64,000 bases of DNA from Candidatus Heimdallarchaeota archaeon (GCA_020353515.1 CP070695.1:1170660-1234659); one strand, 5' to 3'. Shown: positions 1,244 to 31,508, numbered from the stretch's first letter. A program made the numbers and translations. Notes: generated by a model not told the origin, from the sequence alone.

Positions 1244-1789
1244 CTTTCACACTAATCCACAACGAGAGAAGAACATAGCATTTAATATTCTCAATCATAA
1301 CTATATAGACTTGTAGAAGTATTTTTTTAAATTAGCTTCTGCTATTATCGTAATGTCTGATGGTGTTTTGTTTTAACAAAAATTCAAAGAAAGGACAAAA
1401 ATCCTTTTTCAATGAAATCAATAATTCTTCAAAGTATAATTAACTCTGAGAAGATTTTCACGAATAATTAGAAGTACGCCGTATTCCTGAATTTAGAATA
1501 ATTGTTTTTTTTATAGCATAACGACTTTTCATCAAAAGTAGCTTGTAAATTGATTAGCTGCAAATCACTCTGTAATTAATTTTTATCTTATTTTATGTAA
1601 AATTCTGGCTGGTTTGACGATATTTAGGAAAGGTTACTAATTAGGAAAATAAGGGTGACGATAACATTCAGCAATCATATTTTCGCGATAAGATTTAGGC
1701 GGATTTTCTGATTTCCACTCAAAGTCTTCTTTATCTTCAGAAAGTCTATAGGTACGTTTTCGCTTTCAATTCTATTAATTATCTATGAG

Positions 1790-1978
1790 TTGGGCGATAT
1801 TGTACCCCCTGTCATTGCATGGATAGGAATTGTGGCTAGTGTTATTGTTGGTATCTATTATGGAATTAAACTAGTAAGACCTAATTATGAAGGGATCCTA
1901 GCTCTAGGTGGACTGTTGGCGATTCTATTTGAAATTCTTATTGGATGTTGGCTATTATTATTTGGTTTCATCTCATAG
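1790..1978 (+). CDS. Small hypothetical membrane protein (2 TM)
   Basis: 62-aa ORF, TTG start, two clear hydrophobic helices. Confidence 0.45.
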   Translation: MGDIVPPVIAWIGIVASVIVGIYYGIKLVRPNYEGILALGGLLAILFEILIGCWLLLFGFIS

Positions 1979-2243
1979 TGGGATGATTGTTGGTATTTTA
2001 TAATACACGAACCTCGTTGGAAATTAGACATTTCTTATGGAAAAATTACATAAAATTCGTTTTACGAACCCAAATTAGATCGTCTTTTTCTTACTCTAAT
2101 AATCTATGCGATCCATTCCGTGTTCGCTTTATGAAAAATTTTTTATATTTGAACATTCTTGTCTATATGGATTTTTGGACTTGTGGCTTGACTCAAGCCA
2201 GATGGAGTAAACATAAAAATACTCTAATTTAGAGAATTTGATT

Positions 2244-2271
2244 GGGCAGGTAGCTCAGCCTGGCTAGAGTG
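2244..2271 (+). tRNA. Isolated tRNA 5' fragment (acceptor 5' strand plus D-arm, about positions 1-26); isotype undeterminable
   Basis: GGGCAGG-TA-GCTC-AGCCTGGCTA-GAGT-G matches archaeal tRNA 5' ends (U8, A9, D-stem, GG in D-loop). It is followed directly by an A-tract, with no anticodon or T-arm. Confidence 0.7.
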
Positions 2272-2311
2272 TTATAAAAAAAAAGAGAAAAAGTAGAATT
2301 AATGGATTTCT

Positions 2312-4708
2312 TTAGCCTATAATTCGACTTACTGTTTCTTCGGAGATCGACGCACGGAACAGTGATCGGAGTGAGAGATATGTTGCTATGACAATTCCGA
2401 GACACACATTCGCAACTGATATACCAATGCTGATGGGAGAGAGCTCAAAAATTAGGATCACACCAAATATCGCTGCCCAATCATACACTAGATTTATCAT
2501 AAGAATACTGCAAATGAAGCCAAAAACTATACCACCAATCCCAGTGATAACCAGTTCTAGCAGGATAGTAGTAAATATCTCCTTGTTTGAAACTCCTAGT
2601 GCTCTAAAATTGATGAAATCGTATTTTCGTTCAGAAATCGATATAGAAACTATCGTAACAGCAATAGAGGCTCCAACTAATAAACCAGCAAATAACGCGA
2701 GCCAGATTAATACCATTGTCAAATTGTTAACTAATTCAATAGTCTCTATTAGATCATTCTTGTTAACAACCCTATGTACTTCAGACTCTAATTCTAACTT
2801 TGATGAAAGCTGGTTTGGATCAGAAGCCTTGATATAGAGAGCATTTGAATCATTGTTCTCTAATTGAGCTAACATGCGTGCAGTGCTAATCGTAGAGTAT
2901 ATCCCTGATCCAGAGAGTTCATTTAAGATATTTCCAATTATTAAGGTATGTTCTTTATCAAAAACTTTAATTTTAATATTATCTCCTGTTTTAACCTTAT
3001 ATTTAAGGGCCAGATCTTTGGTTATTGCAAGCTCTCCTTCTGCTGGGAATATATCATTATCAAAACGCCGCATATCAGAATTAGGCACTAACCCAGTTAA
3101 ACTATATATTCGTGACAAGTCCTGTGAAAATCGAATAGGAACGAGTACAACAGGTTCATTTTCGTTTATCTGGCCTGTATTTTCTTGAAGCAAAGTGGTA
3201 ATTTGGCTTTCATTTTGATAATTGCGAAAAATTACCTGAATATCCCAGTTTTGATGAAAGTTCATTTGCTTATCAAAACCAGAATAATAATTTAACGTAA
3301 CATTTGACCCAAAGAATGATATAAACGTTGCCAGAAAAATACCTGCAAGAATAAAGAAAGATTTTCGCTTATCTTGAAAAATGGAACGAATTGAGAATTT
3401 TGATAAAGGAGAGAGAGAACGGAATTTAGTTGTGATCCTTTCAAATAAGCTTACTTTACCAGGATCAAACTTAGCTTTCGGTTTCATTGCGTCTAAGGGC
3501 CGCATATTGAAGATTTTCCTGATTGCGAACAGGGAACCTATAGTAGTCAAGATACAAGTAAGAAGAAAATAGCTTACGGCAGGAAGTAATGAAACTGGAG
3601 ATATTGCAACAACAGTTGGTAATTTCTTAATCCCCGATAACTCAAAAATCATGTAATCACTTAAACCAATTCCAACAATAGCACCACATACGGAACCAAT
3701 AATCCCACCAATAACACTGATGATTAACGAATAGATCACCGTACTGACTATTAATTCCCGATTTGTGAATCCTAAAGATTTGAAAAGACCCAAGGTTGGA
3801 AGTTCTTCTTCTATAATACGTTTCAAAACAATAAACAGTAAGATAGCAGCGATCCCAGTAAACATTATGGCCATTATAACACCCATACCCAGCAGCTCTA
3901 GACCTATTACTTCGATGTACCAATTTCTTCCCTCAGTTTTTAGCACAGTATCTTCCCCTAATACTGTATATAGTTCCCCTAAAAACAGATTCTTTTTGGA
4001 TGGATCATCAAAATGAAATACCAGTTGATTGGCTTGTACTTCATTATCTGTGATACTCAATAAATCCGTATACCGCATCCAAATAACTGAACCTGACCAA
4101 AAGTCAAAAAATTCTGCTGCTGCCGCTCCAGGTGCTACCATATACTCTGGTGAATCAACATGCGCTATTGTACTCACCATGAAAGGTTCTACACCTTCAA
4201 TATCAGTTGAAATTATGAGAGATCCACCCACTTGCCAATCATTGAGTTCAGCCGTAAATTGGTCGACTACTGATACATTTGGCGATCCAGATTCATAGAG
4301 TGTTTCAATAGCACCTGAATGATAATATAACGTATTTACAGCTGAAGGACGAGAGCCATTTACTCCGTAAAGGCGAGTAGTAACCCAAGAGTCTCCTGCA
4401 CTACTAACTTTTACTTCAACAAACGATCGAACTTCGAAATCAGGATCTAAGCCTGAATTTGTTTTAGCTTCATTCACCAGTTGTGATAATTTTCCCGCAT
4501 CCATAGGGGTAACAGTTACAAGAAGATGATGGTAATTTTGGTTTCCCCAAGAAGCATTTGTAGCTTCATACCATGTAAGATAAATATTGCTATACATGAT
4601 AGAGGCTATACCACCTATGATAATGACAATGAATATTGGAATAGATCTAATTTTCTTTCGTTTTAAATCTCTCCAAGCTTTTAGAAAGAATAACTTCATT
4701 TTAAACAC
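2312..4708 (-). CDS. FtsX/MacB-family ABC transporter permease
   Basis: Two FtsX-type TM blocks (LGLFKSLGF, FRALGVS) separated by large extracytoplasmic loops; directly downstream of the ATPase. Probable start ATG 4699. Confidence 0.9.
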   Translation of the reverse strand: MFKMKLFFLKAWRDLKRKKIRSIPIFIVIIIGGIASIMYSNIYLTWYEATNASWGNQNYHHLLVTVTPMDAGKLSQLVNEAKTNSGLDPDFEVRSFVEVKVSSAGDSWVTTRLYGVNGSRPSAVNTLYYHSGAIETLYESGSPNVSVVDQFTAELNDWQVGGSLIISTDIEGVEPFMVSTIAHVDSPEYMVAPGAAAAEFFDFWSGSVIWMRYTDLLSITDNEVQANQLVFHFDDPSKKNLFLGELYTVLGEDTVLKTEGRNWYIEVIGLELLGMGVIMAIMFTGIAAILLFIVLKRIIEEELPTLGLFKSLGFTNRELIVSTVIYSLIISVIGGIIGSVCGAIVGIGLSDYMIFELSGIKKLPTVVAISPVSLLPAVSYFLLTCILTTIGSLFAIRKIFNMRPLDAMKPKAKFDPGKVSLFERITTKFRSLSPLSKFSIRSIFQDKRKSFFILAGIFLATFISFFGSNVTLNYYSGFDKQMNFHQNWDIQVIFRNYQNESQITTLLQENTGQINENEPVVLVPIRFSQDLSRIYSLTGLVPNSDMRRFDNDIFPAEGELAITKDLALKYKVKTGDNIKIKVFDKEHTLIIGNILNELSGSGIYSTISTARMLAQLENNDSNALYIKASDPNQLSSKLELESEVHRVVNKNDLIETIELVNNLTMVLIWLALFAGLLVGASIAVTIVSISISERKYDFINFRALGVSNKEIFTTILLELVITGIGGIVFGFICSILMINLVYDWAAIFGVILIFELSPISIGISVANVCLGIVIATYLSLRSLFRASISEETVSRIIG

Positions 4709-4716
4709 CTATTAAG

Positions 4717-5457
4717 TTATACTTTTTCAATAGCTGGAGCTGCTGTGAGTGTTTCCCAAAATTCTTCTTCTTTGGCTGGATCATATACAGAAGTTCCGAA
4801 TATTTTACCATCACGTAAATAAATGACTTTATCAGCTAGATATGAGATACCGACGTTGTGTGTTATTAATATCATTGTAACATGGTGATCTTTGTTGATT
4901 TGTTTAAGTAATTTCAATATTTTGCCTGTTGTTTCACTGTCGATGTTTCCCGTTGGTTCATCAGCTAATAATATCTTGGGTTTCTTAGCTAATGCCCTTG
5001 CAATGGCTACTCGCTGCTGTTCACCACCACTAAGCTGAGCTGGAAATTTGTTACTCTTATCCCCTAAACCAACTACATCCAATAACTCTTTTGTTATTTT
5101 ACTTGCTTCATCTGAGGAATTAGTGAGTTTAGCTGCTAGCTCCACATTCTCGAATGCAGTAAGAGAGGCAACAAGGTTATAGAACTGGAAAATAAACCCT
5201 ACATTCCCTCTACGATATTGTGTAAGCTTTTTTTCAGAAAGAGAAGCCAATTCTAACCCATTAAAGTGGATTTTCCCTTTAGATGGACGATCCAGGGCTC
5301 CAATAAGGTTCAGAAAAGTCGTTTTTCCTGAACCTGAAGGGCCTAAAATCACAATGAAATCTCCTTCTTCAATGGAAATAGTGATCTCTTGAAGAGCGGG
5401 TACGGTTAACTCGCCCATAACATAATCTTTTGACAAATCTTCTATTTGTATTGACAT
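4717..5457 (-). CDS. LolD/MacB-type ABC transporter ATP-binding protein
   Basis: [34 protein letters not shown] 5457 has an upstream GGTG SD. Confidence 0.95.
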
Positions 5458-5539
5458 GGTTTTACACCAGGTAGCCATTTTGTTAATAATTCTTATATTT
5501 AATAGGAAAACAAGGGTTATATACCTATAAAACCTAGGT

Positions 5540-5647
5540 GGTTGAGTAGGTAAAGAACTGTACCTGAAGAATCCATAATTTCATTTTATGGGTAGTATTT
5601 TCGTGAATATAAGCATATTCAGGGTAAACACCTGTATACCCTCAACC
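5540..5647. other. Intergenic nested inverted-repeat element (candidate structured RNA or MITE-like relic)
   Basis: GGTTGAG(TA)GGTA at 5540-5552 pairs with TACCCTCAACC at 5637-5647; internal hairpins CCATAA/TTATGG and TGAATAT/ATATTCA. Confidence 0.4.
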
Positions 5648-5710
5648 TTTGAACTGACTGGAAAAATACATATGATGATAAAAAACGTCACAAGGAGAAA
5701 TGAAAGTGCT

Positions 5711-6352
5711 TCAAGTTATAAGTATAAGCCCCATCAAAGTCCCATGAGGGATAGATTCTGGTTTAGCATCACTCCCGATTGGATAGATATCCCATCCAAG
5801 TTTTGCAGCCAATCGATAACAATCAATCCCAACTGCTTCCATACTAGGCCTTGCTTTTAATGTAAACCTGCATTTCTGTCCCAGTAAGACAGCACAATCA
5901 TCTTTCCAACAATATGTAGACTTACATGAGCCTGCTCCAAAACCGACTGATAAATAATAACCATCGTAAAAAGCAGTACTTTCAATTTTATTGACAATCT
6001 CGAAGGTCTTTTGATATGCTCCCACTCGTTCTTTAACGGTTTCTTTGTTTCTTACAATAACTTTGGGAGGAACTTCGCATTTAAAGGTAATTGCCCATTT
6101 GTATTGAGCCACATACCTTCGTGTATCCTCTGGTTTAATGCTGTGAGGGGGACAATTAGCACAAACACCATATCCGAAGCATTTTGGAATAATACATTTC
6201 AAGACAACACGGTCATCAACAGGAATATGACTGGTTTGGATATACTTGGCATCACTGGCGCCAAGTTCCTTGGCAAGTGAACAATATTTTTCTAGATCCT
6301 TTAAAACCTCTTCATCTGAAATATCCAAGCGGATTTTCTCCACATCTGCCAT
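5711..6352 (-). CDS. DUF2284-family predicted metal-binding protein
   Basis: C-x4-C-x2-YG-x4-CPP, GAGSC..C..C..C and RPSMEAVGID motifs. Confidence 0.85.
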   Translation of the reverse strand: MADVEKIRLDISDEEVLKDLEKYCSLAKELGASDAKYIQTSHIPVDDRVVLKCIIPKCFGYGVCANCPPHSIKPEDTRRYVAQYKWAITFKCEVPPKVIVRNKETVKERVGAYQKTFEIVNKIESTAFYDGYYLSVGFGAGSCKSTYCWKDDCAVLLGQKCRFTLKARPSMEAVGIDCYRLAAKLGWDIYPIGSDAKPESIPHGTLMGLILIT

Positions 6353-6461
6353 GTTTTCACCTCACTTTTCTTAACTCCAGCTTTCTAAAACGAAGATAAT
6401 AACTATTACTCACTAAATCAACAATTAAAAAGAAAGGGAGTCGGTCTCTCCTTAAAAGAAA

Positions 6462-6650
6462 TTCACCAACTTCTTCTTCCATATACACCCCTATGCCATA
6501 AAAGGCATAAAATATCATAAAACCGAGATAGATGATGAACAAGGCCGCATTCGCATGATACTGGTCTCTCACAGCAGGGTATTTCAACTCTAATCTTCCA
6601 GGCAACTTATCCATTGGAGCACGAGAACGTGAGAGTTTATCAGAAAACTT
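6462..6650 (-). pseudogene. Gene relic: internal fragment paralogous to the ABC-2 permease at 11161-12882
   Basis: MDKLPGRLELKYPAVRDQYHANAALFIIYLGFMIFYAFY vs MDKLLGRLGWKYPAVRDQFHASAALFIIYLGFMIFYAFY. DNA is colinear with ~11857-12046; the flanks are unrelated. Confidence 0.85.
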
Positions 6651-6765
6651 AATCTACGTTTCCTAATGGAAGAAGTTATCAAAGATATCGAAACCAAAAG
6701 ACAAATTACGAAAGTAGCGGCTTTAACTTTGAGATGATTTTTTATCTTTTAAAAAAGAAGAGAAG

Positions 6766-6782
6766 GGTCACTCTTAGTGACC
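6766..6782 (-). terminator. Hairpin plus pyrimidine/T tract downstream of the repeat-protein gene
   Basis: GGTCACT-CTT-AGTGACC 7-bp stem 18 nt after the stop; on the minus strand followed by CTTCTCTTCTTTTTT. Confidence 0.55.
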
Positions 6783-6800
6783 GCTTTTCCTAATTTCATA

Positions 6801-9029
6801 TTACGATGGATTGGAACCACTGTTAAACTGAATATCTAGGATGGCTTCAATAGAGCCCATTCCTATGGCAGTAGTGACCATGATCCCTTCAGGGTTCATA
6901 TTGAAATTCGTGGAGACCTCAATACTGTCAAAATTGCTGTTCACCTCTACATCGGAGTTGAATTCAAAGCTGTCAGTAATTATGTTCATTTCTGTAGTAG
7001 TTAGAACAACACTAGAAGGAGTACTTAATTCAAAATCTGTAGTGATCTGAAGGCCATCTTCAGAGGTACTAAGTTTAATACTAATGATAACTTCCATCTC
7101 TTCATCGAAACTACTCTCCAAGCCGAAATTCATGGCAACTTCAAGGTTATTGGTTCCTAAACTGATGTCTGCAGTGACTTCGATACCTTCAGGGCTAAAT
7201 TTGATATTTGTGTTTACATCGATCTCACTATCAGAACCCAGCTTAATATCTGTTGTGAAATCGAAATTCTCTGGGCTTAATGTTACTCTTAAAGTAACTT
7301 CAACGTCAACATCGCTAATAGGCTCAGGAATACAGAGTGTTTTGATGTATACCTCAAGTGCATTTAAGGAGTTATACGTCCCCAACCAAATGTCTTCGTA
7401 TTGTGGATTGGGAAATAAATCAAGACTGCCTGTCACTCTACCATAAGCAGCTTGTCCTTGATCTGTGGTTAGTTCACCCTCACTATCAAACCATTCCTCG
7501 AGCATATAGGGGTTATCCATATCAGTGTTTGGATCCCAATCGATGTTTATTGCTGCTTGAGCTCCTTCGAAATTAGGATCGAATTCATACACCCAGCTGA
7601 TCCAAACTTTTTTAGAGGGATTTTCATTATCTAAATTAGCTATTCGAACATACCACTGGCCTGGTTGGTCAAGTACAGTTCGTTCTGCCTCATAAGACCA
7701 AGTAGGAATATCACCGATCGCTTTATCCCACCCTGGTATGGGAGTACTGTCTCCAGGATTGAGGGGGTCATCAAAGATCCAGCCTAGTTGAACCTGTGCA
7801 TCCTCATGCCAATCAGGTAACGTTCCTGGACCTATTGTTACAGGTTCAATCTCCTCAACACAAAGTGTTTTGATGTACACTTCTACTGCATTCTTAGAAC
7901 CACCATAGACTCCTAACCAGACGTCTTCATATTGGGGATTAGGGTATAAGTCGAGACTATGCGTTACTCGAGCATGAGTTGCTTGTAAATAATCCGTGGT
8001 TAGTTCACCATCACTATCGAACCATTCCTCTAGATACTGAACATTTTCATGGCCAGAGTCAGGATACCATTCAATGTTAGTAGCTGAACGAATTCCTTCA
8101 ATGTAAGTATCGAATTCATACACCCAGCTGATCCAGAATTTCTTAGATGGATGATCATTGACTAGATTAGGAATACGGATGTACCACTGTGCAGGGTGAT
8201 CATATACAGTGCCGTCAGGATCATAAGTCCAAGTAGGAATTTCACCTATCGCTATATCCCACCCTGTTAAGGGAGTACTGTCTCCAGGATTGAGGGGGTC
8301 ATCAAAGATCCAACCTAGTTGAACCTGTGCATCCTCATGCCAGTCTGGTAATGTTCCTGGGCCTATTCCTTCGGGAATAATTTCTTCAACGCAGAGTGTT
8401 ATGATGTATACTTCTAGGGCATTCTTAGTCCCACCATAAACTCCAAGCCAGACATCTTCATATTGGGGGTTGGGGTACATATCAAGATACAAAGTGACTC
8501 GAGCATAAGCCGCCTGTAAATGATCTGTGGTGGGATCACCATTAACATCAAACCATTCTTCGAGATACTGAGGATCTCCACTATCAGTGGCAGGATACCA
8601 ATTAATGTTAGTTGCAGAACGATCTCCTTCGTAGTAAGAATCGAACTCATAGATCCAGCTGATCCAGAATTTCTTAGATGGATGATCATTGACTAGATTA
8701 GGAATACGGATGTACCACTGCGCAGGGTGATCATATACAGTACCGTCAGGATCATAAGTCCAAACAGGAATATCTCCAACCGCTGTATTCCATTCAGGTA
8801 GGGGTTCACTGCCTCCAGGATTGAGGGGGTCATCAAAGATCCAACCCAGTTGAACCTGTGCATCCATGTACCAATTAGGCAATGTTCCTGGGCCTATTCC
8901 TCCAGCGACACTACCAACTTTAGCATTTATGCTAGGCATAGATGGGAGAATTTTACTTCCCATAAGCATAGGCGCTAAAGAAACAAGTGATATCACGACA
9001 AAAAATTGAAATAATTTTGCTTCTCTCAT
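6801..9029 (-). CDS. Secreted acidic protein with three tandem 177-aa Trp/Pro/Asp-rich repeats and a beta-strand-rich C-terminal domain
   Basis: ATG 9029 with AGGAGG SD; signal-peptide-like N-terminus; repeats begin (G/T)IGPGTLPxWxxDAQVQLGWIFDDPLNPG. Confidence 0.85.
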   Translation of the reverse strand: MREAKLFQFFVVISLVSLAPMLMGSKILPSMPSINAKVGSVAGGIGPGTLPNWYMDAQVQLGWIFDDPLNPGGSEPLPEWNTAVGDIPVWTYDPDGTVYDHPAQWYIRIPNLVNDHPSKKFWISWIYEFDSYYEGDRSATNINWYPATDSGDPQYLEEWFDVNGDPTTDHLQAAYARVTLYLDMYPNPQYEDVWLGVYGGTKNALEVYIITLCVEEIIPEGIGPGTLPDWHEDAQVQLGWIFDDPLNPGDSTPLTGWDIAIGEIPTWTYDPDGTVYDHPAQWYIRIPNLVNDHPSKKFWISWVYEFDTYIEGIRSATNIEWYPDSGHENVQYLEEWFDSDGELTTDYLQATHARVTHSLDLYPNPQYEDVWLGVYGGSKNAVEVYIKTLCVEEIEPVTIGPGTLPDWHEDAQVQLGWIFDDPLNPGDSTPIPGWDKAIGDIPTWSYEAERTVLDQPGQWYVRIANLDNENPSKKVWISWVYEFDPNFEGAQAAINIDWDPNTDMDNPYMLEEWFDSEGELTTDQGQAAYGRVTGSLDLFPNPQYEDIWLGTYNSLNALEVYIKTLCIPEPISDVDVEVTLRVTLSPENFDFTTDIKLGSDSEIDVNTNIKFSPEGIEVTADISLGTNNLEVAMNFGLESSFDEEMEVIISIKLSTSEDGLQITTDFELSTPSSVVLTTTEMNIITDSFEFNSDVEVNSNFDSIEVSTNFNMNPEGIMVTTAIGMGSIEAILDIQFNSGSNPS
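7330..8900 (-). repeat. Three intragenic tandem repeats with a 531-bp period
   Basis: Equivalent positions at 8900, 8369 and 7838; long near-identical DNA blocks between copies. Confidence 0.9.
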
Positions 9030-23061: not shown

Positions 23062-24726
23062 CTACTTACTTGTATAGATCTCTTTATACTTCATCCGTAT
23101 AGCTTTCTTGTCTATCTTCCCTACACTTGTTTTTAATATATTTGTAACATAAAGAATCTCATCAGGTAATTGCCATTTAACAAATTTTTCAGCGAGGTAT
23201 TTTCTGATTTCATCTTGGGTTACCTTTGTTTTGAATTCATCTCTTAAGACCACTAACGCTAAAGGTCGCTCTTCCCATTTGGGGTGCGGACATCCAACAA
23301 CTGCAGCTTCAAGAATTGGAGGATACGAGATTAAGGCGTTCTCCATATCTACAGAAGATATCCATTCCCCTCCACTCTTAATTAAGTCTTTAAGCCTGTC
23401 TGTAATTTTTAAATACCCCTCTGGACTGATAGTTCCAACGTCACCACTTCTGAAGTATCCCTCATCAGAGAATTGAGCCTCAGATTCAGGAGCATTATAG
23501 TAACTTCCAGAAACCCAAGGCCCACGAAGAAGAACTTCTCCTGCTGATTCACCATCGTGGGGAAGTTCCCTCCCATTTTCATCCACTATTTTAATATCAA
23601 GTCCTACTACAATATACCCTTGCTTTCTCTTGAAATCCCATTTATCTTCCTCTGAGAATCCTTTTTCTAAAATTGGGATTACTCGATTCAAGGTTACAAT
23701 TGCATGAGCTTCAGTCGAACCGTATGAATGAATGATTTCAGCACCAGTTAAATCCATATAATCCTTCATCATTGCAACAGGAGGTTCTGAAGCTCCTGAA
23801 ATAATCCGCACTCCGGTTAAATCAGGTTTTGGCTCCATTTTCCTGATATATTCTAACATTGGCATCAATATAGCGGGAGCTCCATTAGCCATTGTTACCT
23901 TTTCCTCAACTAGAAGCGTCGTAAGGTCTTCTAGATTCTTTAAACTGTACCTACCAGGAAAAACTAGTTTAGCTCCAACTATAGTGGCAGCGTAAGGAGT
24001 TCCCCATCCAAGAACATGAAACATTGGTACGAGTTGAAAAACCGTGTCTTTTATCGAAATCGAAGCATTAGCGGCATACATCAAGGCTTGGAGATAAACA
24101 TCGCGATGGGAATAATAGACTCCTTTCGGTCTTCCTGTTGTCCCACTAGTGTAACAAGCAGAATAAGCGGAGGTTTCTTCGATGATAGGCCAATCGTAAT
24201 CAGGAGACGCTTCCCCTAACATCTCTTCGTAGCTGTAAATCGGTTCTAGGGAGGTTGAAATATCACTCAATGGTTTATCAGTGATGATTACATATCCTTT
24301 GACGGTCTTACAAAAAGGTGCAATCGCTTCAGCTACATGAAGCAAATTTTCGTCTACAAAGATGAATTTTGCCTCCGCATGGTTTACTACATAACTCAAT
24401 TCTTGTTGAGAGAGGCGTAAATTCAACAGAAGCATAACAGCTCCAGTACCAGGTAAACCATAATAAATTTCAAAGTGACGGTAAGTATTCCACTCAAGAA
24501 CACCAATTTTCTCACCCACCTCTATTCTTAAAGACACTAGAGAGTTTGCCAACCTTTTAATACGCTCATATGCTTCCTTATATGTGTAACGAAATAAACT
24601 TCCATCATGTTTCCTGCTGACAATTTCCTGCTTTCCAAAGCTCCGTGCTGCATGTTTAAGAAGAGTTGTTACATTTAATTGATAATTGGTCTGTGATGTA
24701 GCTGAAAATCCCTTAACGATCTCCAT
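23062..24726 (-). CDS. Medium/long-chain acyl-CoA ligase (AlkK/DmdB-like)
   Basis: YTSGTTGRPKG, VPMFHVLGWG, SYGSTE, DRLKDLIKSGGEWISS, KWEERP, VGKIDK. ATG 24726 with AAGGAG SD. Confidence 0.92.
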   Translation of the reverse strand: MEIVKGFSATSQTNYQLNVTTLLKHAARSFGKQEIVSRKHDGSLFRYTYKEAYERIKRLANSLVSLRIEVGEKIGVLEWNTYRHFEIYYGLPGTGAVMLLLNLRLSQQELSYVVNHAEAKFIFVDENLLHVAEAIAPFCKTVKGYVIITDKPLSDISTSLEPIYSYEEMLGEASPDYDWPIIEETSAYSACYTSGTTGRPKGVYYSHRDVYLQALMYAANASISIKDTVFQLVPMFHVLGWGTPYAATIVGAKLVFPGRYSLKNLEDLTTLLVEEKVTMANGAPAILMPMLEYIRKMEPKPDLTGVRIISGASEPPVAMMKDYMDLTGAEIIHSYGSTEAHAIVTLNRVIPILEKGFSEEDKWDFKRKQGYIVVGLDIKIVDENGRELPHDGESAGEVLLRGPWVSGSYYNAPESEAQFSDEGYFRSGDVGTISPEGYLKITDRLKDLIKSGGEWISSVDMENALISYPPILEAAVVGCPHPKWEERPLALVVLRDEFKTKVTQDEIRKYLAEKFVKWQLPDEILYVTNILKTSVGKIDKKAIRMKYKEIYTSK

Positions 24727-24864
24727 TGTACTTTCTCCTTTCTTATTAATAAGTGAATGAATCTCCATCTATTTAGGTTTTAACTTCAAATGATTAGAAA
24801 TATAAAATTAAAGCTGAAAATCTGAATAGGATTAGACTCACAGAATTACTTAATGTGAAAAGAC

Positions 24865-25842
24865 ATGGGAATTATCACATCAACAACAGAAATCATGGCT
24901 TATATTTTATTCTTTATAGTTATCTCTATATTAAGTTTCAGAAGGGATTTTCACTCTGTCGCTCAAGTCTTAAGCGGGAGTTTATTTGGAGTGACTCTTG
25001 AGTACATGAATATCCAAGTTATGCAAACATATATTTATTCCTCTCAATTCCTTCTCCAACTTGGGTCTCCTCCTGATAATATTCCAATATGTATCGGATT
25101 GTGCTGGGGACTAATAATTTATGCGTGTATGAATGTCTCAAACAAAATAATTGAGATTCCAGAATGGTTGAAACCTCTATTGGATGGCCTTTTGGCATTA
25201 ACTATTGATCTATCTATGGATACAATAGCTATCCGCCTAGACGGAGGCTTTTGGACTTGGTTAGAAATCCCTATGGAGAATCTCCCGACTTTGAATAGTT
25301 TTTTCGGAGTAAATTATGGGAACTTTGTAGGATGGTTCTTTGTTGTGTTAATTTTTTCGACAATGTTAAGGATTGAAGAAAAATGGATAGCAAAGAAATT
25401 CAGTAGATCAGTAATTTTAGTATTATATTTTCTCATTATTCCATTCTTTTCATACATCCCCTTATTTCTATCATTTCATACACTCCCTCTCCCAGTGTTT
25501 ATTATTTTTAATATTCTAGGTTTCAATGGTGAATCTACAAATTTAATGGAACTAGCGATACTTGTATATATAATGACCTTGGTCAGTATAATATTTTTCA
25601 TAGCTTTAATCCGTTCAAAACCTAAATTAGAAAAAGATGCCGATTTATTGTCATTGACTATTTTTATGTTCTTTCATTTAAGCTACTTGGGTTTTTATTT
25701 ACTAGATGGATTATTTGAAGAAACACCTTTGATTCTTCTTATAGCAAGTCTTATGTTTACTATTGATGCAATGATTCACTACAGTATTCTCGACAAGAAA
25801 AGGTTAAGCCTCCAAATTGAAAAACTGAAAAAGGCATTATAA
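24865..25842 (+). CDS. CruF/DUF422-like membrane protein (carotenoid hydratase family)
   Basis: LEY..Y.YS, IPICIGLCW, IDLSMDTIA..FWTW, FFGVNYGNFVGWF; multi-TM. Confidence 0.75.
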   Translation: MGIITSTTEIMAYILFFIVISILSFRRDFHSVAQVLSGSLFGVTLEYMNIQVMQTYIYSSQFLLQLGSPPDNIPICIGLCWGLIIYACMNVSNKIIEIPEWLKPLLDGLLALTIDLSMDTIAIRLDGGFWTWLEIPMENLPTLNSFFGVNYGNFVGWFFVVLIFSTMLRIEEKWIAKKFSRSVILVLYFLIIPFFSYIPLFLSFHTLPLPVFIIFNILGFNGESTNLMELAILVYIMTLVSIIFFIALIRSKPKLEKDADLLSLTIFMFFHLSYLGFYLLDGLFEETPLILLIASLMFTIDAMIHYSILDKKRLSLQIEKLKKAL

Positions 25843-26096: not shown

Positions 26097-26924
26097 ATGA
26101 AATTTTCAATGAGAGAAAAAAGAAAGAAAGTTGATTCATTGAAAAAGGATTTCATAGGTAGAGATGTTTCAGAGATCATTCTACTTTCTTTTGATGAATT
26201 TGGAGAAGATTTAGCTATGACTACTGCTTTTGGTTATAGTGGTGTCGTATTGATGAGCTTTATCAAAGAAACGGTGCCTGATCTTCCAATATATTTCATT
26301 GACACACGTCTTCACTTTCAAGAGACTATTGATCTCATGAATAAGATAAAAAACGAATGGAAACTAAATATTCATCATTTGTATCCTAATTTTAGCGATG
26401 AGGAGTTAGATCGCATAATTGGTAAAAAGGCATATAGCACAAATCCGGATATATGTTGCCATTATAGAAAAGTTATGCCCCTTCTTAAAATTCTTGAGAC
26501 TAAGAGTGCGTGGTTAAGCGCTATAAGAAGAGATCAATTCAGAACACGTGCAAGAATAGAAGTTATTGAGATAGATGGTCGTGGGATGATTAAGATCAAT
26601 CCAATGTGGGATTGGACAAAAAATAAGGTCTGGTTCTATGTGAAAACCCATAATCTTCCGTACAATCCTCTTCATGACAAGAATTTTCCAAGTATTGGTT
26701 GCAAACCTTGCACATCACAGATAAAAGAGGGAGAGGATGAGAGAAAGGGGCGATGGAAGGGATTAGAGAAAAAAGAATGTGGTATCCACATATCAGAGAG
26801 TAGTGAACAATTTATACGAGAAATGGCTACAACAATTGACTTTACTTCCTTCCCAACAACAATGAAGTCTAATAACAGTGAAAAATCCAACATAAGCAGA
26901 GGGAAAACGGCAAATAAAAAGTGA
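26097..26924 (+). CDS. cysH: Adenylyl-/phosphoadenylyl-sulfate reductase, 4Fe-4S type
   Basis: TAFG, FIDTRLHFQET, CCHYRK, SIGCKPCT, ERKGRW, KECGIH. Confidence 0.93.
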   Translation: MKFSMREKRKKVDSLKKDFIGRDVSEIILLSFDEFGEDLAMTTAFGYSGVVLMSFIKETVPDLPIYFIDTRLHFQETIDLMNKIKNEWKLNIHHLYPNFSDEELDRIIGKKAYSTNPDICCHYRKVMPLLKILETKSAWLSAIRRDQFRTRARIEVIEIDGRGMIKINPMWDWTKNKVWFYVKTHNLPYNPLHDKNFPSIGCKPCTSQIKEGEDERKGRWKGLEKKECGIHISESSEQFIREMATTIDFTSFPTTMKSNNSEKSNISRGKTANKK

Positions 26925-26933
26925 AATTAATAA

Positions 26934-27701
26934 TTAAATTTCACTAGGATCATGAAATGTCAATAGGGTGTCTCCACGTAATCCTAGACGTAATGTTTCT
27001 ACAGGAATTATTTCAGCAGGAGCGATATTACCCAAATTGACATTTGGACCGAATTTTTTTATGAACCAGACCTGTTGTGCCTTCTGTGGAGCCTCCCAAA
27101 TAATTCTTTGATAGTCGATTGCATCAACAATCTCATCTACGAGACCAGTCCGAATTTCAGAGCTTCTCCGATAGAGACCTGATGTTCCTGTTTCTCTTCC
27201 TTCAGCGATCACCTTCCAAGCTCCAGCATCAAGCTCCATAATCATTCCTAACACCCACTCTTTGGGTGCAACAATTGTGGCAGCATCTTTACTCCCAAAC
27301 TCTGATAAAACAGTAAAATCTTTGGAGAACTCTTTAATAAAATCTAGCTTCTCAGATATGGTTAATGTAATTGTACCATCAGAAATTTCCATATATTTTA
27401 TTCCCAATTCTTTCATCCATTTCTTAAACTCATCAATCTTTCCTTCAGCGTACGCTACCTCAAAGAGAGTCCCACCGAATGTAACAGGGATCTTATGCTT
27501 ATGATATAATTCAATTTTTTCTTCGAGATGAGGAACAATTACTCCTAATCCCCATCCGACTTTAACTATATCAATATAATAAGCACAGGTACTAAGCATA
27601 TCTTCTTGTGTTGTGAGTCCAAACCCCTTATCTAAAACATGAGTTAATCCGATTTCTCTTGGTTTTTTAGCCCTTTCAGGAAGATTGAGTATTTTTTTCA
27701 T
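26934..27701 (-). CDS. comA: Phosphosulfolactate synthase
   Basis: KPREIGLTHVLDKG, DIVKVGWG, GGTLFE, EISDG, SEFGSK, EGRETG, WEAP, NVNLGNI, ETLRLGLRGDT. Confidence 0.96.
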   Translation of the reverse strand: MKKILNLPERAKKPREIGLTHVLDKGFGLTTQEDMLSTCAYYIDIVKVGWGLGVIVPHLEEKIELYHKHKIPVTFGGTLFEVAYAEGKIDEFKKWMKELGIKYMEISDGTITLTISEKLDFIKEFSKDFTVLSEFGSKDAATIVAPKEWVLGMIMELDAGAWKVIAEGRETGTSGLYRRSSEIRTGLVDEIVDAIDYQRIIWEAPQKAQQVWFIKKFGPNVNLGNIAPAEIIPVETLRLGLRGDTLLTFHDPSEI

Positions 27702-29224
27702 GATTCACCAACTTCTATCTTACCTTTTGCGACCAAAATCAGGTTATCAAGTTGTTTTAATGAACGTTCTTCACAACCGTCCCTCCATACAGATATCCCT
27801 TTGAGGGTTTTCCTACATTCCATAACCATTTCTTGGACACGTACTTTCGCAGCACCACCAAGTCCTTGTCTTGTTTCTATAATAGCTATTGGGTCGAGTA
27901 TTGAGTCAAGTTGTGGTTGTGTCAGATCAAGTTTTTTCTGAAGAACTTGGTTCGCAGCTCCATCAACAATCTCGGGAGTCAATATAAAACGTTTTTCGTT
28001 CTTCTGGATAGCTTCTCGTACTAGAATACCAACAATTTGATGAGCAGAACGATAATCAACTTTTCTTTCTTGCATAATGAGGTCAGCAAGATCTGTTGCC
28101 TGGGAGAACCCTTCTATGGCTTGTCGTGACATATTATCAGTATTAAACTTAATTTCTGCAACAAGAGAAGCCATAAGATCTATTCCCTTTGAAGCTTGTT
28201 CAAGAATTCTGGGTAATTTACCATAAACAAATATTCGAGAATCTGGATTCCCTGATGAAGTCTTTGCTACTCCTGCAATACTCGAAACAACCCCTATCAT
28301 ATCTCCTGTTAGTCCACGAATATATGTAAGTGGATAAGGATTTTTCTTTTGAGGCATGATGACACTTGCTCTACAAAATCGATCTGGAAGATCAATAAAA
28401 TCAAATTCTGTTGTACTCCAAATTTGTAGCTCTTCGGATAAACGATTTACATTTATTAAGAGAGCTAAGAGATTCGATACAGTTTCAATTGGAATATCTG
28501 GTTGCCACATTGCATCCCTTGTATGCTGCGTTATTTCATCAAACCCAAGCAATTCTTTAAGACGTAAGCGGTTAAGAGGGAGTCGCGATCCGTTTACACT
28601 TCCTGATCCAGCTGGACAGGAGTTGATCCTCTTATAAGTTGCTCTAAATCTATCCAAATCCCTTAATGCAGGATACACGAATGTTAACAAGTAGTGTCCT
28701 AAAGATGTTGGTTGCGCATGTTGTAAGTATGTAAAATCAGGCATTATGGTATCTAAATGATTCTGAGCTTGATTCAAAAATTCATCTATTAACCGAATAA
28801 AGATTCTAATAAACTTTAAGACCAATTTTCTCAGATAAAGTAAGTATCCAATGTTAATTGCTTCACGGCGAGGACGCCCTGCATGCATCCAACCTGCAAT
28901 GTGACCAATTTTTTCTTCCAGTAATCCAGCACGGACGTTATAAATGTCTCCTAACTCTACTCGTAGAGGAATATCGTTAATGTTAGTTTCCTGAAATTCA
29001 AGTAAAGCTTCAAGGAGAGTTTTTCCTTCGCTAAAAGGGATGATTCCTTCCTCTATCAACATCAATACATGAGCGATATCAGCTAATCCTATTTCATGGA
29101 AAAATATCATCTCTTCCTCACATTCAAAAGTGTAAGCGGATTTAATTAACTCCTTTGCTGCAGATGTTTTAAGTCGTCCTCCCTTTCCATAATATTCTGC
29201 AGATTCTCTGCTGTTTTTTGACAT
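27698..29224 (-). CDS. Aspartase/fumarase-superfamily lyase (ArgH fold), XcbC-like phosphosulfolactate phospho-lyase candidate
   Basis: MPQKKNP signature and ArgH C-terminal features (ATDLAD, YRSAHQIVG), but HAGRPRRE, FTYLQHAQP and ASVIMPQKKNPYPLT deviate from ArgH. ATGA overlap with comA. Confidence 0.8.
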   Translation of the reverse strand: MSKNSRESAEYYGKGGRLKTSAAKELIKSAYTFECEEEMIFFHEIGLADIAHVLMLIEEGIIPFSEGKTLLEALLEFQETNINDIPLRVELGDIYNVRAGLLEEKIGHIAGWMHAGRPRREAINIGYLLYLRKLVLKFIRIFIRLIDEFLNQAQNHLDTIMPDFTYLQHAQPTSLGHYLLTFVYPALRDLDRFRATYKRINSCPAGSGSVNGSRLPLNRLRLKELLGFDEITQHTRDAMWQPDIPIETVSNLLALLINVNRLSEELQIWSTTEFDFIDLPDRFCRASVIMPQKKNPYPLTYIRGLTGDMIGVVSSIAGVAKTSSGNPDSRIFVYGKLPRILEQASKGIDLMASLVAEIKFNTDNMSRQAIEGFSQATDLADLIMQERKVDYRSAHQIVGILVREAIQKNEKRFILTPEIVDGAANQVLQKKLDLTQPQLDSILDPIAIIETRQGLGGAAKVRVQEMVMECRKTLKGISVWRDGCEERSLKQLDNLILVAKGKIEVGES

Positions 29225-29245
29225 TCTAAATCAGCTCATTCGATA

Positions 29246-30325
29246 TTACCCAATTTTCTTACCTAATACACTAGGAACATGAAAATCTTTTACACCATAT
29301 TGTTCATAATAACGGATTGTAATTCTACCGTATTGTATTTTTGATTTTTGAGCAGCTAGTTCTTCTTTTGTAATTTCACCAAGAAGCCATTTTAACGCTA
29401 GATAAGGTAAAACTAAATCATCTTGATAAGCAAAAGTAGATACTCGTGGGTTTATTTCGATGAGATGTTCTCCTTTGAATTGAACATTGATACAATAATC
29501 TAGTCCCAGCTCTTTCATTGCATGTTCAGAGTATGATTCTAGATCTGGACGATTCAAGGTTTTAAAGATCATTGCTAAACCTGATCGTGCTTTTTCACGA
29601 GTTTTCACAGTCGCTAGTAGAGTCTCACCATCTGAAACTAAAGTATCGACTGTACATTCGGGGCCTTCTAAGTATTCCATAAGTAAAAACTGAGGCAGAT
29701 CAATATCTTGAAACATTTCAACGAATTCATTCATGGACATAAATCGATTGAAAGGAAGTTGGTTCATTAATATATCAACTTTATTAATTTCTGGATCTAT
29801 TATCCTAAATCCACGACTTCCTTTCGAAATGTGTGGTTTGAAACAAACTCTCTTATTTGGGAAGCCCAATAACTTAGCACATTCTTGAAATTCATCGAGA
29901 TCTTTTGGATAATAGTATTCTGGTGTTTTTAATCCTCGAGATTTTAAGAATTCAAACAACTCATATTTATTATTGCATATTTCAATTGGTTCAGGTTTAG
30001 AAACCATTACATTAACGTCAAGGTTCTCAAATTTCTTTTTATTTCGAGATATAGGACCAACTTCGGACGAAGATTGAGGAAACAAAATATTGGGTTGCTC
30101 TTCTTCAATAATAGTCAGTAAGGATTGGATATAATCCTCATCATTTGCTGGTGGAACAATATAAGGGGAATCAACCATATTGAAACCAGTTGCATAAGGA
30201 TTCATGTCGATACCAATAATCGTGATTTCCCTCTCTCCGTTATTTTTCAGGCGCCGTATCAAGGCTGGTGCGCCAGGACATCCTACTGATGTGAGTAGTA
30301 TCTTCAATGGTCTTTTCAAAGTCAT
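29246..30325 (-). CDS. ATP-grasp amide ligase (carbamoyl-phosphate-synthase-like single-domain family)
   Basis: ILLTSVG, CNNKY, KP..SKGSRG, MEYLEGPE, NVQFK, LIEINPR; 21 bp upstream of the lyase. Confidence 0.9.
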   Translation of the reverse strand: MTLKRPLKILLTSVGCPGAPALIRRLKNNGEREITIIGIDMNPYATGFNMVDSPYIVPPANDEDYIQSLLTIIEEEQPNILFPQSSSEVGPISRNKKKFENLDVNVMVSKPEPIEICNNKYELFEFLKSRGLKTPEYYYPKDLDEFQECAKLLGFPNKRVCFKPHISKGSRGFRIIDPEINKVDILMNQLPFNRFMSMNEFVEMFQDIDLPQFLLMEYLEGPECTVDTLVSDGETLLATVKTREKARSGLAMIFKTLNRPDLESYSEHAMKELGLDYCINVQFKGEHLIEINPRVSTFAYQDDLVLPYLALKWLLGEITKEELAAQKSKIQYGRITIRYYEQYGVKDFHVPSVLGKKIG

Positions 30326-30428
30326 CAATACCCTGAAATATTCCTATTATTAGGATAAATGTTATAATTGATCAAATTTAGACTAACTCAAAAGATTTCC
30401 TTTAAGTCTTTGAATTGATAAAAGCTCA

Positions 30429-31508
30429 TCACATTTCTTTGATAGCTAAGCTCAATTTCTCAAGTCCTTTCTCCAGTTCTTCGGTTTCTCCTCCAAAACC
30501 AAGACGGAAAAAATGATCCATTTTGAAACAATAACCTGGGACTGTGAAAGTTCGGTATTTCTCCACCAAAAGACGACAGAGCCTCTCTGAAGACTCATTA
30601 AATCGAGGAAAACAAGTAACACTACCCTTAGGAGGTATAAAACTGAGACGATCCTCATCCTCCATCCAATCAAAAACAATATTATAATTCTCCTTAATCC
30701 TCTGCATGATAGTTTTTAAGTGTCGATCTTTCTTTCGTAAAATTTGAAGTGCGATGGCCTCATTTAAAGCTGAATTACAGATTGTTGTCTGTTCCCTAAC
30801 TTTCAGGATGCCATCAATTATTGTTTTCTCTAGAGAAGCACTCCATCCGACGCGTATTCCAGGAAGACCGTAAACTTTGGACATTGTCGATACACTAATC
30901 ACATTAGAACTTAAATTGGCTGCAGGTGGCAAAACTTTCCCAAAGGTTAATTCACGATATGTTTCATCCAGTAATAAGTAAATATTTCGATCTTCAACAA
31001 TATCAATAATTTGTTTCAACTCTTCTATAGTTATGATTGATCCAGTTGGATTATTAGGGTGGGTTAAACATATAAGCTTTGTATTTGGTTTTATCATGTC
31101 CTCAAGCTTCTGAAAATTTGGTTTAAATCGCTCTTCAAAATCTAAAAAGAACAAATCCATTGATCGTTCCAAAGATTGTGGAATATACCAAAAAGAGGGA
31201 TAATTTGGACATTCTACTATAATATGGTCTTTCTTACTTGTTAAAGAAGCCATAATGGAAAAAATTGATTCCGCTGCTCCTGTTGTTACAGCAATATTAT
31301 CCCAACCTAATTTCTCATAAAAACTTGCAATCTGTGTTCTTAACTCAGGGTTTCCTAAATGATGAGTATATCGTAATTCAACCTCATTTAAATTCAAGTC
31401 TAATTCCCCAAGCTTTAGAAATTTAACTCCACTTTCTCCAATATCATAATCAACATCAAATTGGTATTTATCAAACCATTCTTCTAGAAGCATTCGTTTA
31501 AATGTCAT
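30429..31508 (-). CDS. PLP-dependent class I/II aminotransferase-fold enzyme
   Basis: IGESGV, PNNPTG, DETY, TMSKVYGLPGIRVGW, FRLGFG. ATG 31508 with GAGGT SD. Confidence 0.92.
   Translation of the reverse strand: MTFKRMLLEEWFDKYQFDVDYDIGESGVKFLKLGELDLNLNEVELRYTHHLGNPELRTQIASFYEKLGWDNIAVTTGAAESIFSIMASLTSKKDHIIVECPNYPSFWYIPQSLERSMDLFFLDFEERFKPNFQKLEDMIKPNTKLICLTHPNNPTGSIITIEELKQIIDIVEDRNIYLLLDETYRELTFGKVLPPAANLSSNVISVSTMSKVYGLPGIRVGWSASLEKTIIDGILKVREQTTICNSALNEAIALQILRKKDRHLKTIMQRIKENYNIVFDWMEDEDRLSFIPPKGSVTCFPRFNESSERLCRLLVEKYRTFTVPGYCFKMDHFFRLGFGGETEELEKGLEKLSLAIKEM

Follow-up and report, generated by a model that had tools for sequence, protein, structure and literature searches.

A candidate sulfoacrylate-plus-ligase gene cassette in an Asgard archaeon

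We have identified, in the Asgard archaeon Candidatus Heimdallarchaeota archaeon, a four-gene insert (cysH, comA, an XcbC-like lyase and an ATP-grasp) that most likely turns sulfite and phosphoenolpyruvate into sulfoacrylate and then attaches it by an amide bond, probably to a de-acetylated amino sugar, a reading which we hold with moderate confidence in the absence of biochemical evidence for any step. This would represent an undescribed side branch of the first two steps of bacterial coenzyme M synthesis, the chemistry of which was shown for XcbB and XcbC (PMC9457059). The lyase and ComA group with bacterial glycan-cluster versions, outside the coenzyme M clade, and the cassette was found in 2 of 400 Asgard genomes.

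Results

Gene content and organization of the locus

The window analysed is a stretch of 64,000 nucleotides (GCA_020353515.1 CP070695.1:1170660-1234659). ORF analysis confirmed the genes, gaps, overlap and orientations given in a preliminary description of the locus, in which an ATP-grasp, an ArgH-fold lyase and comA form an operon facing an APS reductase gene (Table 1). The preliminary description left out an aminotransferase gene upstream, although synteny shows that this gene belongs to the backbone and not to the inserted unit.

Table 1. Genes of the locus, with positions counted from the first nucleotide of the window.
Gene	Position	Strand	Assignment	Arrangement
cysH	26097-26924	+	thioredoxin-type Fe-S APS reductase, likely sulfite supplier	converges on comA, 9-bp gap
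comA	26934-27701	-	phosphosulfolactate synthase	start overlaps lyase stop as ATGA
lyase	27698-29224	-	XcbC-like lyase of the ArgH fold, inferred to eliminate phosphate from phosphosulfolactate	21-bp gap to ATP-grasp
ATP-grasp	29246-30328	-	carboxylate-amine ligase of the family normally coupled to PIG-L and GT4	TTG at 30328, ATG at 30325
aminotransferase	30429-31508	-	class I/II aminotransferase, backbone gene, probably not part of the cassette	100 bp upstream

CysH matches PF01507 (PAPS_reduct, 139.6 bits) and PRK02090 (229 bits, cut-off 154) and carries both Fe-S motifs, CCxxRK and SxGCxxC, together with ECGIH, so it is of the APS-reductase type. ComA matches PF02679 over its full length (298.5 bits, 1-243 of 243), while the archaeal equivalog model TIGR03849 scores 250.7, below its cut-off of 280, which fits a bacterial-type ComA. 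It is the only ComA in the genome and is 56-59% identical to ComA of the same lyase grade and a median of 38.7% identical to ComA of xcb clusters. The aminotransferase matches PF00155 (173 bits) and is closest to PRK07324, GntC and VioD-type enzymes.

The lyase carries XcbC signatures

The lyase contains Lyase_1 and ASL_C2 domains and scores best against the NCBIfam XcbC model NF052535 (493 bits), ahead of argH (TIGR00838, 309.3 bits). However, the XcbC score lies below the curated cut-off of 575 whereas the argH score passes its cut-off of 279.5. GRxRRE, DYTYLQ, an R-x-S loop followed by MPQKKNPY, loss of the Glu296 equivalent and xxDxRxF are shared by the window protein, characterised Xanthobacter XcbC and all 80 relatives, while 18 Asgard ArgH sequences read SRNDQ, GYTHLQ, GSS..NPD..E and YNRDxQE. 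Of the ArgH catalytic pair, His162 is replaced by Tyr and Glu296 by Thr (Ala or another small residue in relatives), and the SRNDQ substrate motif is replaced by PRREA. The lyase is not a working ArgH, and the XcbC-like proteins separate from ArgH with 100% support. The lyase is 36% identical to Xanthobacter XcbC and 41% identical to that of a Methylocystis xcb cluster. It lies outside the strongly supported clade that holds all coenzyme M-type members, so a different substrate cannot be excluded.

Searches of the single-contig genome, which is 96% complete, detected no argG and no second ArgH, which together with the residue signatures argues against argininosuccinate cleavage. No comB (PF04029) and no XcbA were found, the only XcbD hit is purB-like at 289 bits against a cut-off of 600, and PALP hits to the Methylocystis XcbE are only 24-29% identical, so neither known coenzyme M route is complete here. 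No comB/C/D/E or xcbA/D/E homologue lies in the window itself. Elsewhere in the genome there are two unlinked Ldh_2 genes, about 700 kb away, and a fused comDE about 150 kb away, which sits with cysteate synthase and its own CysH, not with ComA. This corresponds to the Methanosarcinales route to sulfoacetaldehyde, although its enzymes and intermediates, cysteate and sulfopyruvate, differ from those proposed here and it is not part of the cassette. No Sat, CysD/N or APS kinase was found, and the other two PAPS_reduct hits are NcsA/TtuA-like and PRK13795-like, so the substrate of CysH is unaccounted for.

The lyase-ComA pair is conserved in other genomes

XcbC-like lyases occur in at least 594 species genomes. 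ComA was present in 66 of the 80 best loci and in 37 of the 42 loci with at least 4 kb on both sides. Of the 80, 51 are xcb-type coenzyme M clusters and 14, from several phyla and two lyase clades, pair lyase and ComA with an ATP-grasp, while others pair them with an NRPS or an acyl-CoA ligase. CysH also lies beside lyase and ComA in three bacterial loci (L022, L037 and L050). The closest non-Asgard lyase (53% identity) and ComA (58-59%) are found in uncharacterised EPS/O-antigen clusters of Limisphaerales and Verrucomicrobiales, in which the Verrucomicrobiota operon also holds a NodB-type polysaccharide deacetylase and an FrdA/NadB-like flavoprotein. These clusters show the same logic of a sulfo-acid supply plus an amide ligase plus a sugar de-N-acetylase. 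In contrast to the cassette, they have no CysH and carry the fumarate-reductase-like flavoprotein, which probably saturates sulfoacrylate and is absent here. The bacterial ATP-grasps next to lyase and ComA are only 21-26% identical to the one in the window and the linkage is therefore convergent, not orthologous.

The cassette is an insertion in a conserved backbone

In the same genus, genomes lacking the trait have the aminotransferase directly next to the acyl-CoA ligase, the gene lying directly next to the AMP ligase in genomes G075 and G065, and aminotransferase orthologues of 67-82% identity occur in at least six genomes of the genus in which no XcbC-like lyase was found. The unit is therefore a four-gene insert, as delimited in the preliminary description, sitting in a variable slot of a conserved Hodarchaeales-type backbone. 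The inserted block includes cysH in the genome studied here (G000) and in G074 and L004. Cassette proteins are 71-91% identical among these three genomes, as high as the backbone genes or higher, so they are under selection.

The ATP-grasp family is associated with PIG-L and GT4

The ATP-grasp matches PF15632, PF21360 and PF02655 (ATPgrasp_Ter/PylC-like_N). Its AlphaFold model has a pLDDT of 90.6 and Foldseek comparison matched ATP-grasp folds including 2pn1, carbamoyl phosphate synthetase, PylC and RizA, with K163, E290, N292 and R294 being invariant. Homologues of 42-54% identity lie within 3 kb of a PIG-L de-N-acetylase in 34 of 37 metagenome loci, with GT4 in 28 of 37, and next to or one gene from PIG-L in 6 of 6 other Asgard loci. 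Interestingly, in three of those six, in another Asgard genus (g24), the gene faces a CysH-cysteate synthase-ComDE operon, a second and unrelated sulfonate supply. However, neither PIG-L nor GT4 lies in the window and the PIG-L of this genome is about 1 Mb away.

Discussion

Combined, these results support the interpretation put forward in the preliminary description, that sulfite is converted by way of phosphosulfolactate and sulfoacrylate to an amide on an amino sugar, lipid head group or amino acid, as it survived each computable test named there. In the proposed scheme, CysH reduces APS to sulfite, as inferred from family and motifs, and ComA adds sulfite to PEP, giving 2-phospho-3-sulfolactate, which rests on a full-length family match. 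The lyase is inferred to eliminate phosphate, giving 3-sulfoacrylate, from the residue signatures shared with characterised XcbC and the fixed pairing with ComA. The ATP-grasp would then activate the carboxylate of sulfoacrylate, or of 3-sulfopropionate if an unlinked ene-reductase acts first, and join it to the free amine of a de-N-acetylated hexosamine on a glycoside, glycolipid head group or glycan, inferred because the family of the enzyme is otherwise coupled to PIG-L and GT4. The product would be an N-sulfoacryl(oyl) or N-sulfopropionyl glucosaminide. The ATP-grasp neighbourhoods give independent support to an amino sugar or lipid head group as acceptor. The GT4, PIG-L and ligase triads formed by relatives of the ATP-grasp are possibly comparable to bacillithiol/mycothiol-type logic (BshA/MshA, BshB/MshB, BshC/MshC), in which a glycoside would be formed, de-N-acetylated and re-acylated at the GlcN amine, although the ligase here is an ATP-grasp, not a BshC- or CysRS-like enzyme, and the acyl donor would be a sulfonate acid, not cysteine.

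Other fates of the sulfo-acid appear less likely. The ATP-grasp could join it to a non-sugar amine such as an amino acid, polyamine or peptide, giving a small soluble sulfonated amide, for example a solute or a signal. The cassette contains no PIG-L or GT gene, the aminotransferase could supply an amino acid, and lyase, ComA and CysH feed an NRPS in L037. ComA also supplies a sulfoacetyl cap in misaugamycin (PMC9136965), a short sulfo-acyl group that ends up amide-linked, although that actinomycete natural-product cluster has no XcbC-like lyase and activation is by acyl-CoA ligase and ACP. We consider this unlikely, as the family of the ATP-grasp is tied to PIG-L and GT4 and the aminotransferase is present without the cassette. 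It is doubtful that the ligase instead joins taurine or cysteate to a carboxylate such as a uronic acid, with the aminotransferase and the distant cysteate synthase/ComDE module supplying the amine and the ComA-lyase product having another fate. One homologue (L116) does lie next to a TauA/SsuA-type ABC transporter and a uronyl C5-epimerase, and both genus g24 and G000 possess cysteate synthase and ComDE, paired with the ATP-grasp family in g24. However, this leaves the tight ATP-grasp/lyase/comA coupling unexplained, sulfoacrylate has no amine, and the coupling with PIG-L points to a sugar amine as the acceptor. Equally doubtful is production of a free C3 sulfonate, sulfoacrylate or 3-sulfopropionate, with the ATP-grasp as a passenger. 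Lyase-ComA modules do exist without any ligase (L016, L021 and L025), but the ATP-grasp travels with lyase, ComA and CysH in all three cassette-bearing genomes and is absent where they are absent, and the 14 loci that put an ATP-grasp beside the pair are independent.

A variant coenzyme M pathway, in which the ATP-grasp, with or without the aminotransferase, replaces XcbD and XcbE, is very unlikely. The first two enzymes are those of the XcbABCDE pathway of Xanthobacter autotrophicus Py2 (PMC9457059), where the ComA/XcbB homologue and lyase are likewise adjacent and the steps up to sulfoacrylate are presumed to be the same, but here an ATP-grasp and a dedicated CysH replace the thiolation and decarboxylation steps. 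The PLP enzyme upstream also recalls XcbE, if only loosely, but it is a backbone gene, and the absence of XcbA, the position of lyase and ComA outside the coenzyme M clade and the rarity of the trait among Asgard genomes also speak against this pathway. Least likely is a PurC/PurB-style pair, the alternative raised in the preliminary description, or an ArgG/ArgH-style pair, in which the ATP-grasp ligates aspartate and the lyase releases fumarate, giving an amide or amidine. Although the lyase passes the argH cut-off and fused ATP-grasp/ArgH-like proteins exist (PRK02186 hits), the ArgH residues are replaced by the XcbC pattern, the gene is translationally coupled to comA, and ComA is present in most relatives' loci.

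More tentatively, sulfoacrylate may be not only a coenzyme M intermediate but a widely used, unrecognised building block. In this Asgard lineage, an ATP-grasp of the GT4/PIG-L-coupled family would put an N-sulfoacryloyl group, a charged and possibly thiol-reactive Michael acceptor, on a glucosamine-bearing lipid head group or glycan, while bacteria would feed the same acid, or its reduced form, into EPS, NRPS and radical-SAM/P450 clusters.

Gene organization and protein families

The four genes are located exactly where the preliminary description had placed them, and the borders that it gave to the unit are confirmed by synteny, as described below. The ATP-grasp and lyase genes are separated by a 21-bp gap, the lyase stop and comA start overlap as ATGA, and cysH and comA converge with a 9-bp gap. 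Family assignments are firm. CysH possesses both Fe-S cluster motifs and the ECGIH catalytic motif, so that its designation as an APS reductase is justified. The window lies in a single-contig genome of 4.94 Mb (G000), and the best protein hits are labelled Hodarchaeales, Hodarchaeota and Promethearchaeota. A promoter and terminator scan did not rise above background level and is uninformative for an archaeon.

Coordinates of the cassette genes and of associated features
Feature	Location	Coordinates	Strand
cysH	window	26097-26924	+
comA	window	26934-27701	-
ArgH-fold lyase	window	27698-29224	-
ATP-grasp	window	29246-30328	-
DmdB-like acyl-CoA ligase and aminotransferase bounding the variable slot	window	23062-24768 and 30429-31508	
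Membrane protein with weak Caroten_synth (PF04240) match	window	24865-25842	
Second sulfonate module (CysH2, cysteate synthase, ComDE)	G000, contig C1 (locus L119)	1019025-1022388 (L119:7011-10413)	
Lyase, ComA, CysH and NRPS	L037 (Anaerolineales MAG)	1-8147	
ComA and lyase with TctA-type transporter and class I fumarase	L016 (Desulfovibrio MAG)	3809-8781	

The lyase is XcbC-like

NCBIfam ranks XcbC first for the lyase, at 493 bits against a cut-off of 575, while argH scores 309. We aligned the protein with the characterised Xanthobacter XcbC (pXAUT01), a Methylocystis xcb-cluster lyase, 80 relatives and 18 canonical Asgard ArgH sequences. The window protein shares every motif that separates XcbC-type from ArgH-type enzymes, with GRxRRE replacing SRNDQ, xxDxRxF replacing YNRDxQE, and DYTYLQ replacing GYTHLQ, so that the His162 general acid becomes Tyr. 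The Ser loop retains the catalytic Ser but the Glu296 equivalent is lost. The two groups split with 100% support in a tree. In addition, no argG was found in the genome, in which the lyase is the only ArgH-like gene, and there is therefore no argininosuccinate to cleave. A housekeeping ArgH function was rejected on the basis of the missing argG, the loss of the catalytic pair and the coupling of the gene to ComA.

Conservation of the lyase-ComA linkage

At least 594 species genomes encode such a lyase. In the best 80 loci (genome contigs L012-L091) ComA is present in 66, and it is present in 37 of the 42 loci having at least 4 kb on both sides. Complete xcb-type coenzyme M clusters (XcbA, ComA, XcbC, XcbD, XcbE) make up 51 of the 80 loci and come from Chloroflexota, Actinomycetota, Marinimicrobia/Fidelibacterota, Acidobacteriota and others, far beyond the known alkene oxidisers, with the lyases being annotated as argininosuccinate lyase. 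In 14 loci, from two separate lyase clades, an ATP-grasp lies beside lyase and ComA. In the Verrucomicrobiota loci the operon reads ATP-grasp, FrdA/NadB-like flavoprotein, lyase, ComA, NodB-type deacetylase, and lies inside EPS/O-antigen clusters. A second lyase clade (loci L038, L040, L044, L056, L058, L059 and L061) pairs ATP-grasp, lyase and ComA with radical SAM, cytochrome P450, sulfotransferase and PP2C genes and has the appearance of a natural-product cluster; one of these contigs (L056) is labelled as a Klebsiella pneumoniae MAG and is probably mis-binned.

Other loci pair the module with different partners. In the Anaerolineales locus L037, lyase, ComA and CysH are followed on the same strand by an NRPS (A-T-C-A-T domains), suggesting a sulfo-acid starter unit for a non-ribosomal peptide. 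The module is found with an acyl-CoA ligase, hexapeptide transferase, CysH and WbqC in locus L050, and with an FrdA-like flavoprotein and acyl-CoA ligase in locus L073. ComA and the lyase lie next to a TctA-type transporter and a class I fumarase in the Desulfovibrio locus L016, or next to sulfatases, a CoA-transferase and TctABC in locus L009, and these may be catabolic or hydration variants of the module. The window's lyase sits in a basal grade with Woesearchaeota and Verrucomicrobiota sequences, outside the strongly supported clade that holds all coenzyme M-type members. ComA follows the same pattern, being 56-59% identical to ComA of that grade and a median of 39% identical to ComA of xcb clusters.

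Limits of the cassette

An aminotransferase lies 100 bp upstream on the same strand and an acyl-CoA ligase (AMP ligase) lies nearby, and their status is settled by synteny within the genus. Two genomes of the genus, G075 and G065, have the same backbone, consisting of GNAT, phosphatase and hydrolase followed by aminotransferase, AMP ligase and the two downstream genes, with the aminotransferase directly next to the ligase. In G000, a further genome (G074) and a metagenomic relative (L004), ATP-grasp, lyase, ComA and CysH are inserted between them. The aminotransferase and AMP ligase were therefore rejected as parts of the cassette, although a co-opted role cannot be excluded. Thus, the borders given in the preliminary description are right and the unit is an accessory cassette. 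XcbC-like lyases were found in only 2 of 400 Asgard genomes, both in this genus. Cassette proteins are 71-91% identical among the three carriers, at or above backbone levels.

The interval between the aminotransferase and the DmdB-like acyl-CoA ligase is a variable slot in this genus (loci L121-L127). It is empty in G075 and G065, holds the sulfonate cassette in G000 and G074, and carries other cargo in two further genomes, CysH, Amidohydro_2 and two hexapeptide transferases in G071 and a carotenoid-synthesis-like membrane protein with MTTB in G077. A membrane protein with a weak Caroten_synth match, for which there is no NCBIfam match, sits in the slot in G000, G074 and G077 but not in L004.

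Genomic context of the ATP-grasp family

The ATP-grasp is only 21-26% identical to the bacterial ATP-grasps that lie next to lyase and ComA. The bacterial proteins were therefore rejected as orthologues, and this recurrence is convergent and counts only as convergent support. In contrast, the enzyme's own family (about 42-54% identity) has a very regular context. In 34 of 37 metagenome loci with enough flank a PIG-L de-N-acetylase lies within 3 kb, usually immediately upstream, and a GT4 glycosyltransferase does so in 28 of 37. All six other Asgard loci show PIG-L next to the ATP-grasp or one gene away, with a GT4 nearby. Interestingly, in three genomes of another Asgard genus the ligase/PIG-L operon is divergent from a CysH, cysteate synthase, ComDE and GT4 operon, a second and unrelated route to a short sulfonate.

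The GT4, PIG-L, ATP-grasp triad, often with a further ATP-grasp upstream, is widespread in the metagenome contigs (L135-L214) and is apparently uncharacterised. Its order appears to be that of bacillithiol and mycothiol synthesis, in which glycosylation and removal of the N-acetyl group would be followed by re-acylation of the amine, and the triad resembles the logic of such synthesis or of GlcN-inositol lipid synthesis. A confident model of the ATP-grasp (pLDDT 90.6) confirms the ATP-grasp fold, but a fold search with this model returned only generic ATP-grasp enzymes and gave no clue to the substrate. Sequence searches of the PDB returned only structural-genomics entries for the ATP-grasp and the aminotransferase.

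Sulfonate metabolism in the rest of the genome

G000 also carries a second sulfonate module, about 150 kb upstream of the window, in which CysH2 is divergent from cysteate synthase (TIGR03844, 532 bits, cut-off 325) and a fused sulfopyruvate decarboxylase ComDE. The module lies among glycosyltransferases, being flanked by GT2, GT4, a flippase-like gene and a mannose-1-P guanylyltransferase, and does not contain an aminotransferase. A PIG-L lies next to another ATP-grasp and near a GT4 at about 0.2 Mb. Searches of the genome did not detect comB, Sat, APS kinase, CysD/N, NIR_SIR sulfite reductase or XcbA, the only XcbD-like hit is purB-like, and two Ldh_2 genes are unlinked. The absence of any sulfate-activating enzyme in a genome with two Fe-S CysH genes is unexplained, as is the source of APS or PAPS.

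Proposed mechanism and its significance

Gene order and coupling, family membership and the XcbC signature are evident from the sequence, and established chemistry (PMC9457059) provides the conversion of PEP plus sulfite to phosphosulfolactate and then to sulfoacrylate. That the ATP-grasp activates the sulfo-acid and amidates a de-N-acetylated hexosamine is inferred from context. As the cassette lacks the flavoprotein that accompanies the pair in bacteria, the acyl group may remain unsaturated, unless it is reduced by one of three distant paralogues of about 30% identity. We also considered the use of another amine acceptor, ligation of an amino-sulfonate to a carboxylate, a free sulfonate product, a coenzyme M variant and an ArgG/ArgH-like pair as alternatives to this reading.

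Our literature searches found no paper that links ComA or XcbC to an ATP-grasp, or that combines sulfoacrylate or phosphosulfolactate with ATP-grasp. We regard the first steps proposed here as known and the proposed downstream branch and the host lineage as new. If correct, this reading would extend sulfoacrylate chemistry beyond coenzyme M synthesis, where it has been demonstrated in Xanthobacter, to a family of sulfo-acylations found across bacterial phyla and in Asgard archaea. It gives a testable function to a large uncharacterised ATP-grasp family; at least 307 metagenome loci encode a relative and most of the best ones carry the GT4, PIG-L and ligase triad. It also flags that argininosuccinate lyase annotations in hundreds of genomes are probably wrong, and it predicts a new anionic surface or lipid modification in close archaeal relatives of eukaryotes.
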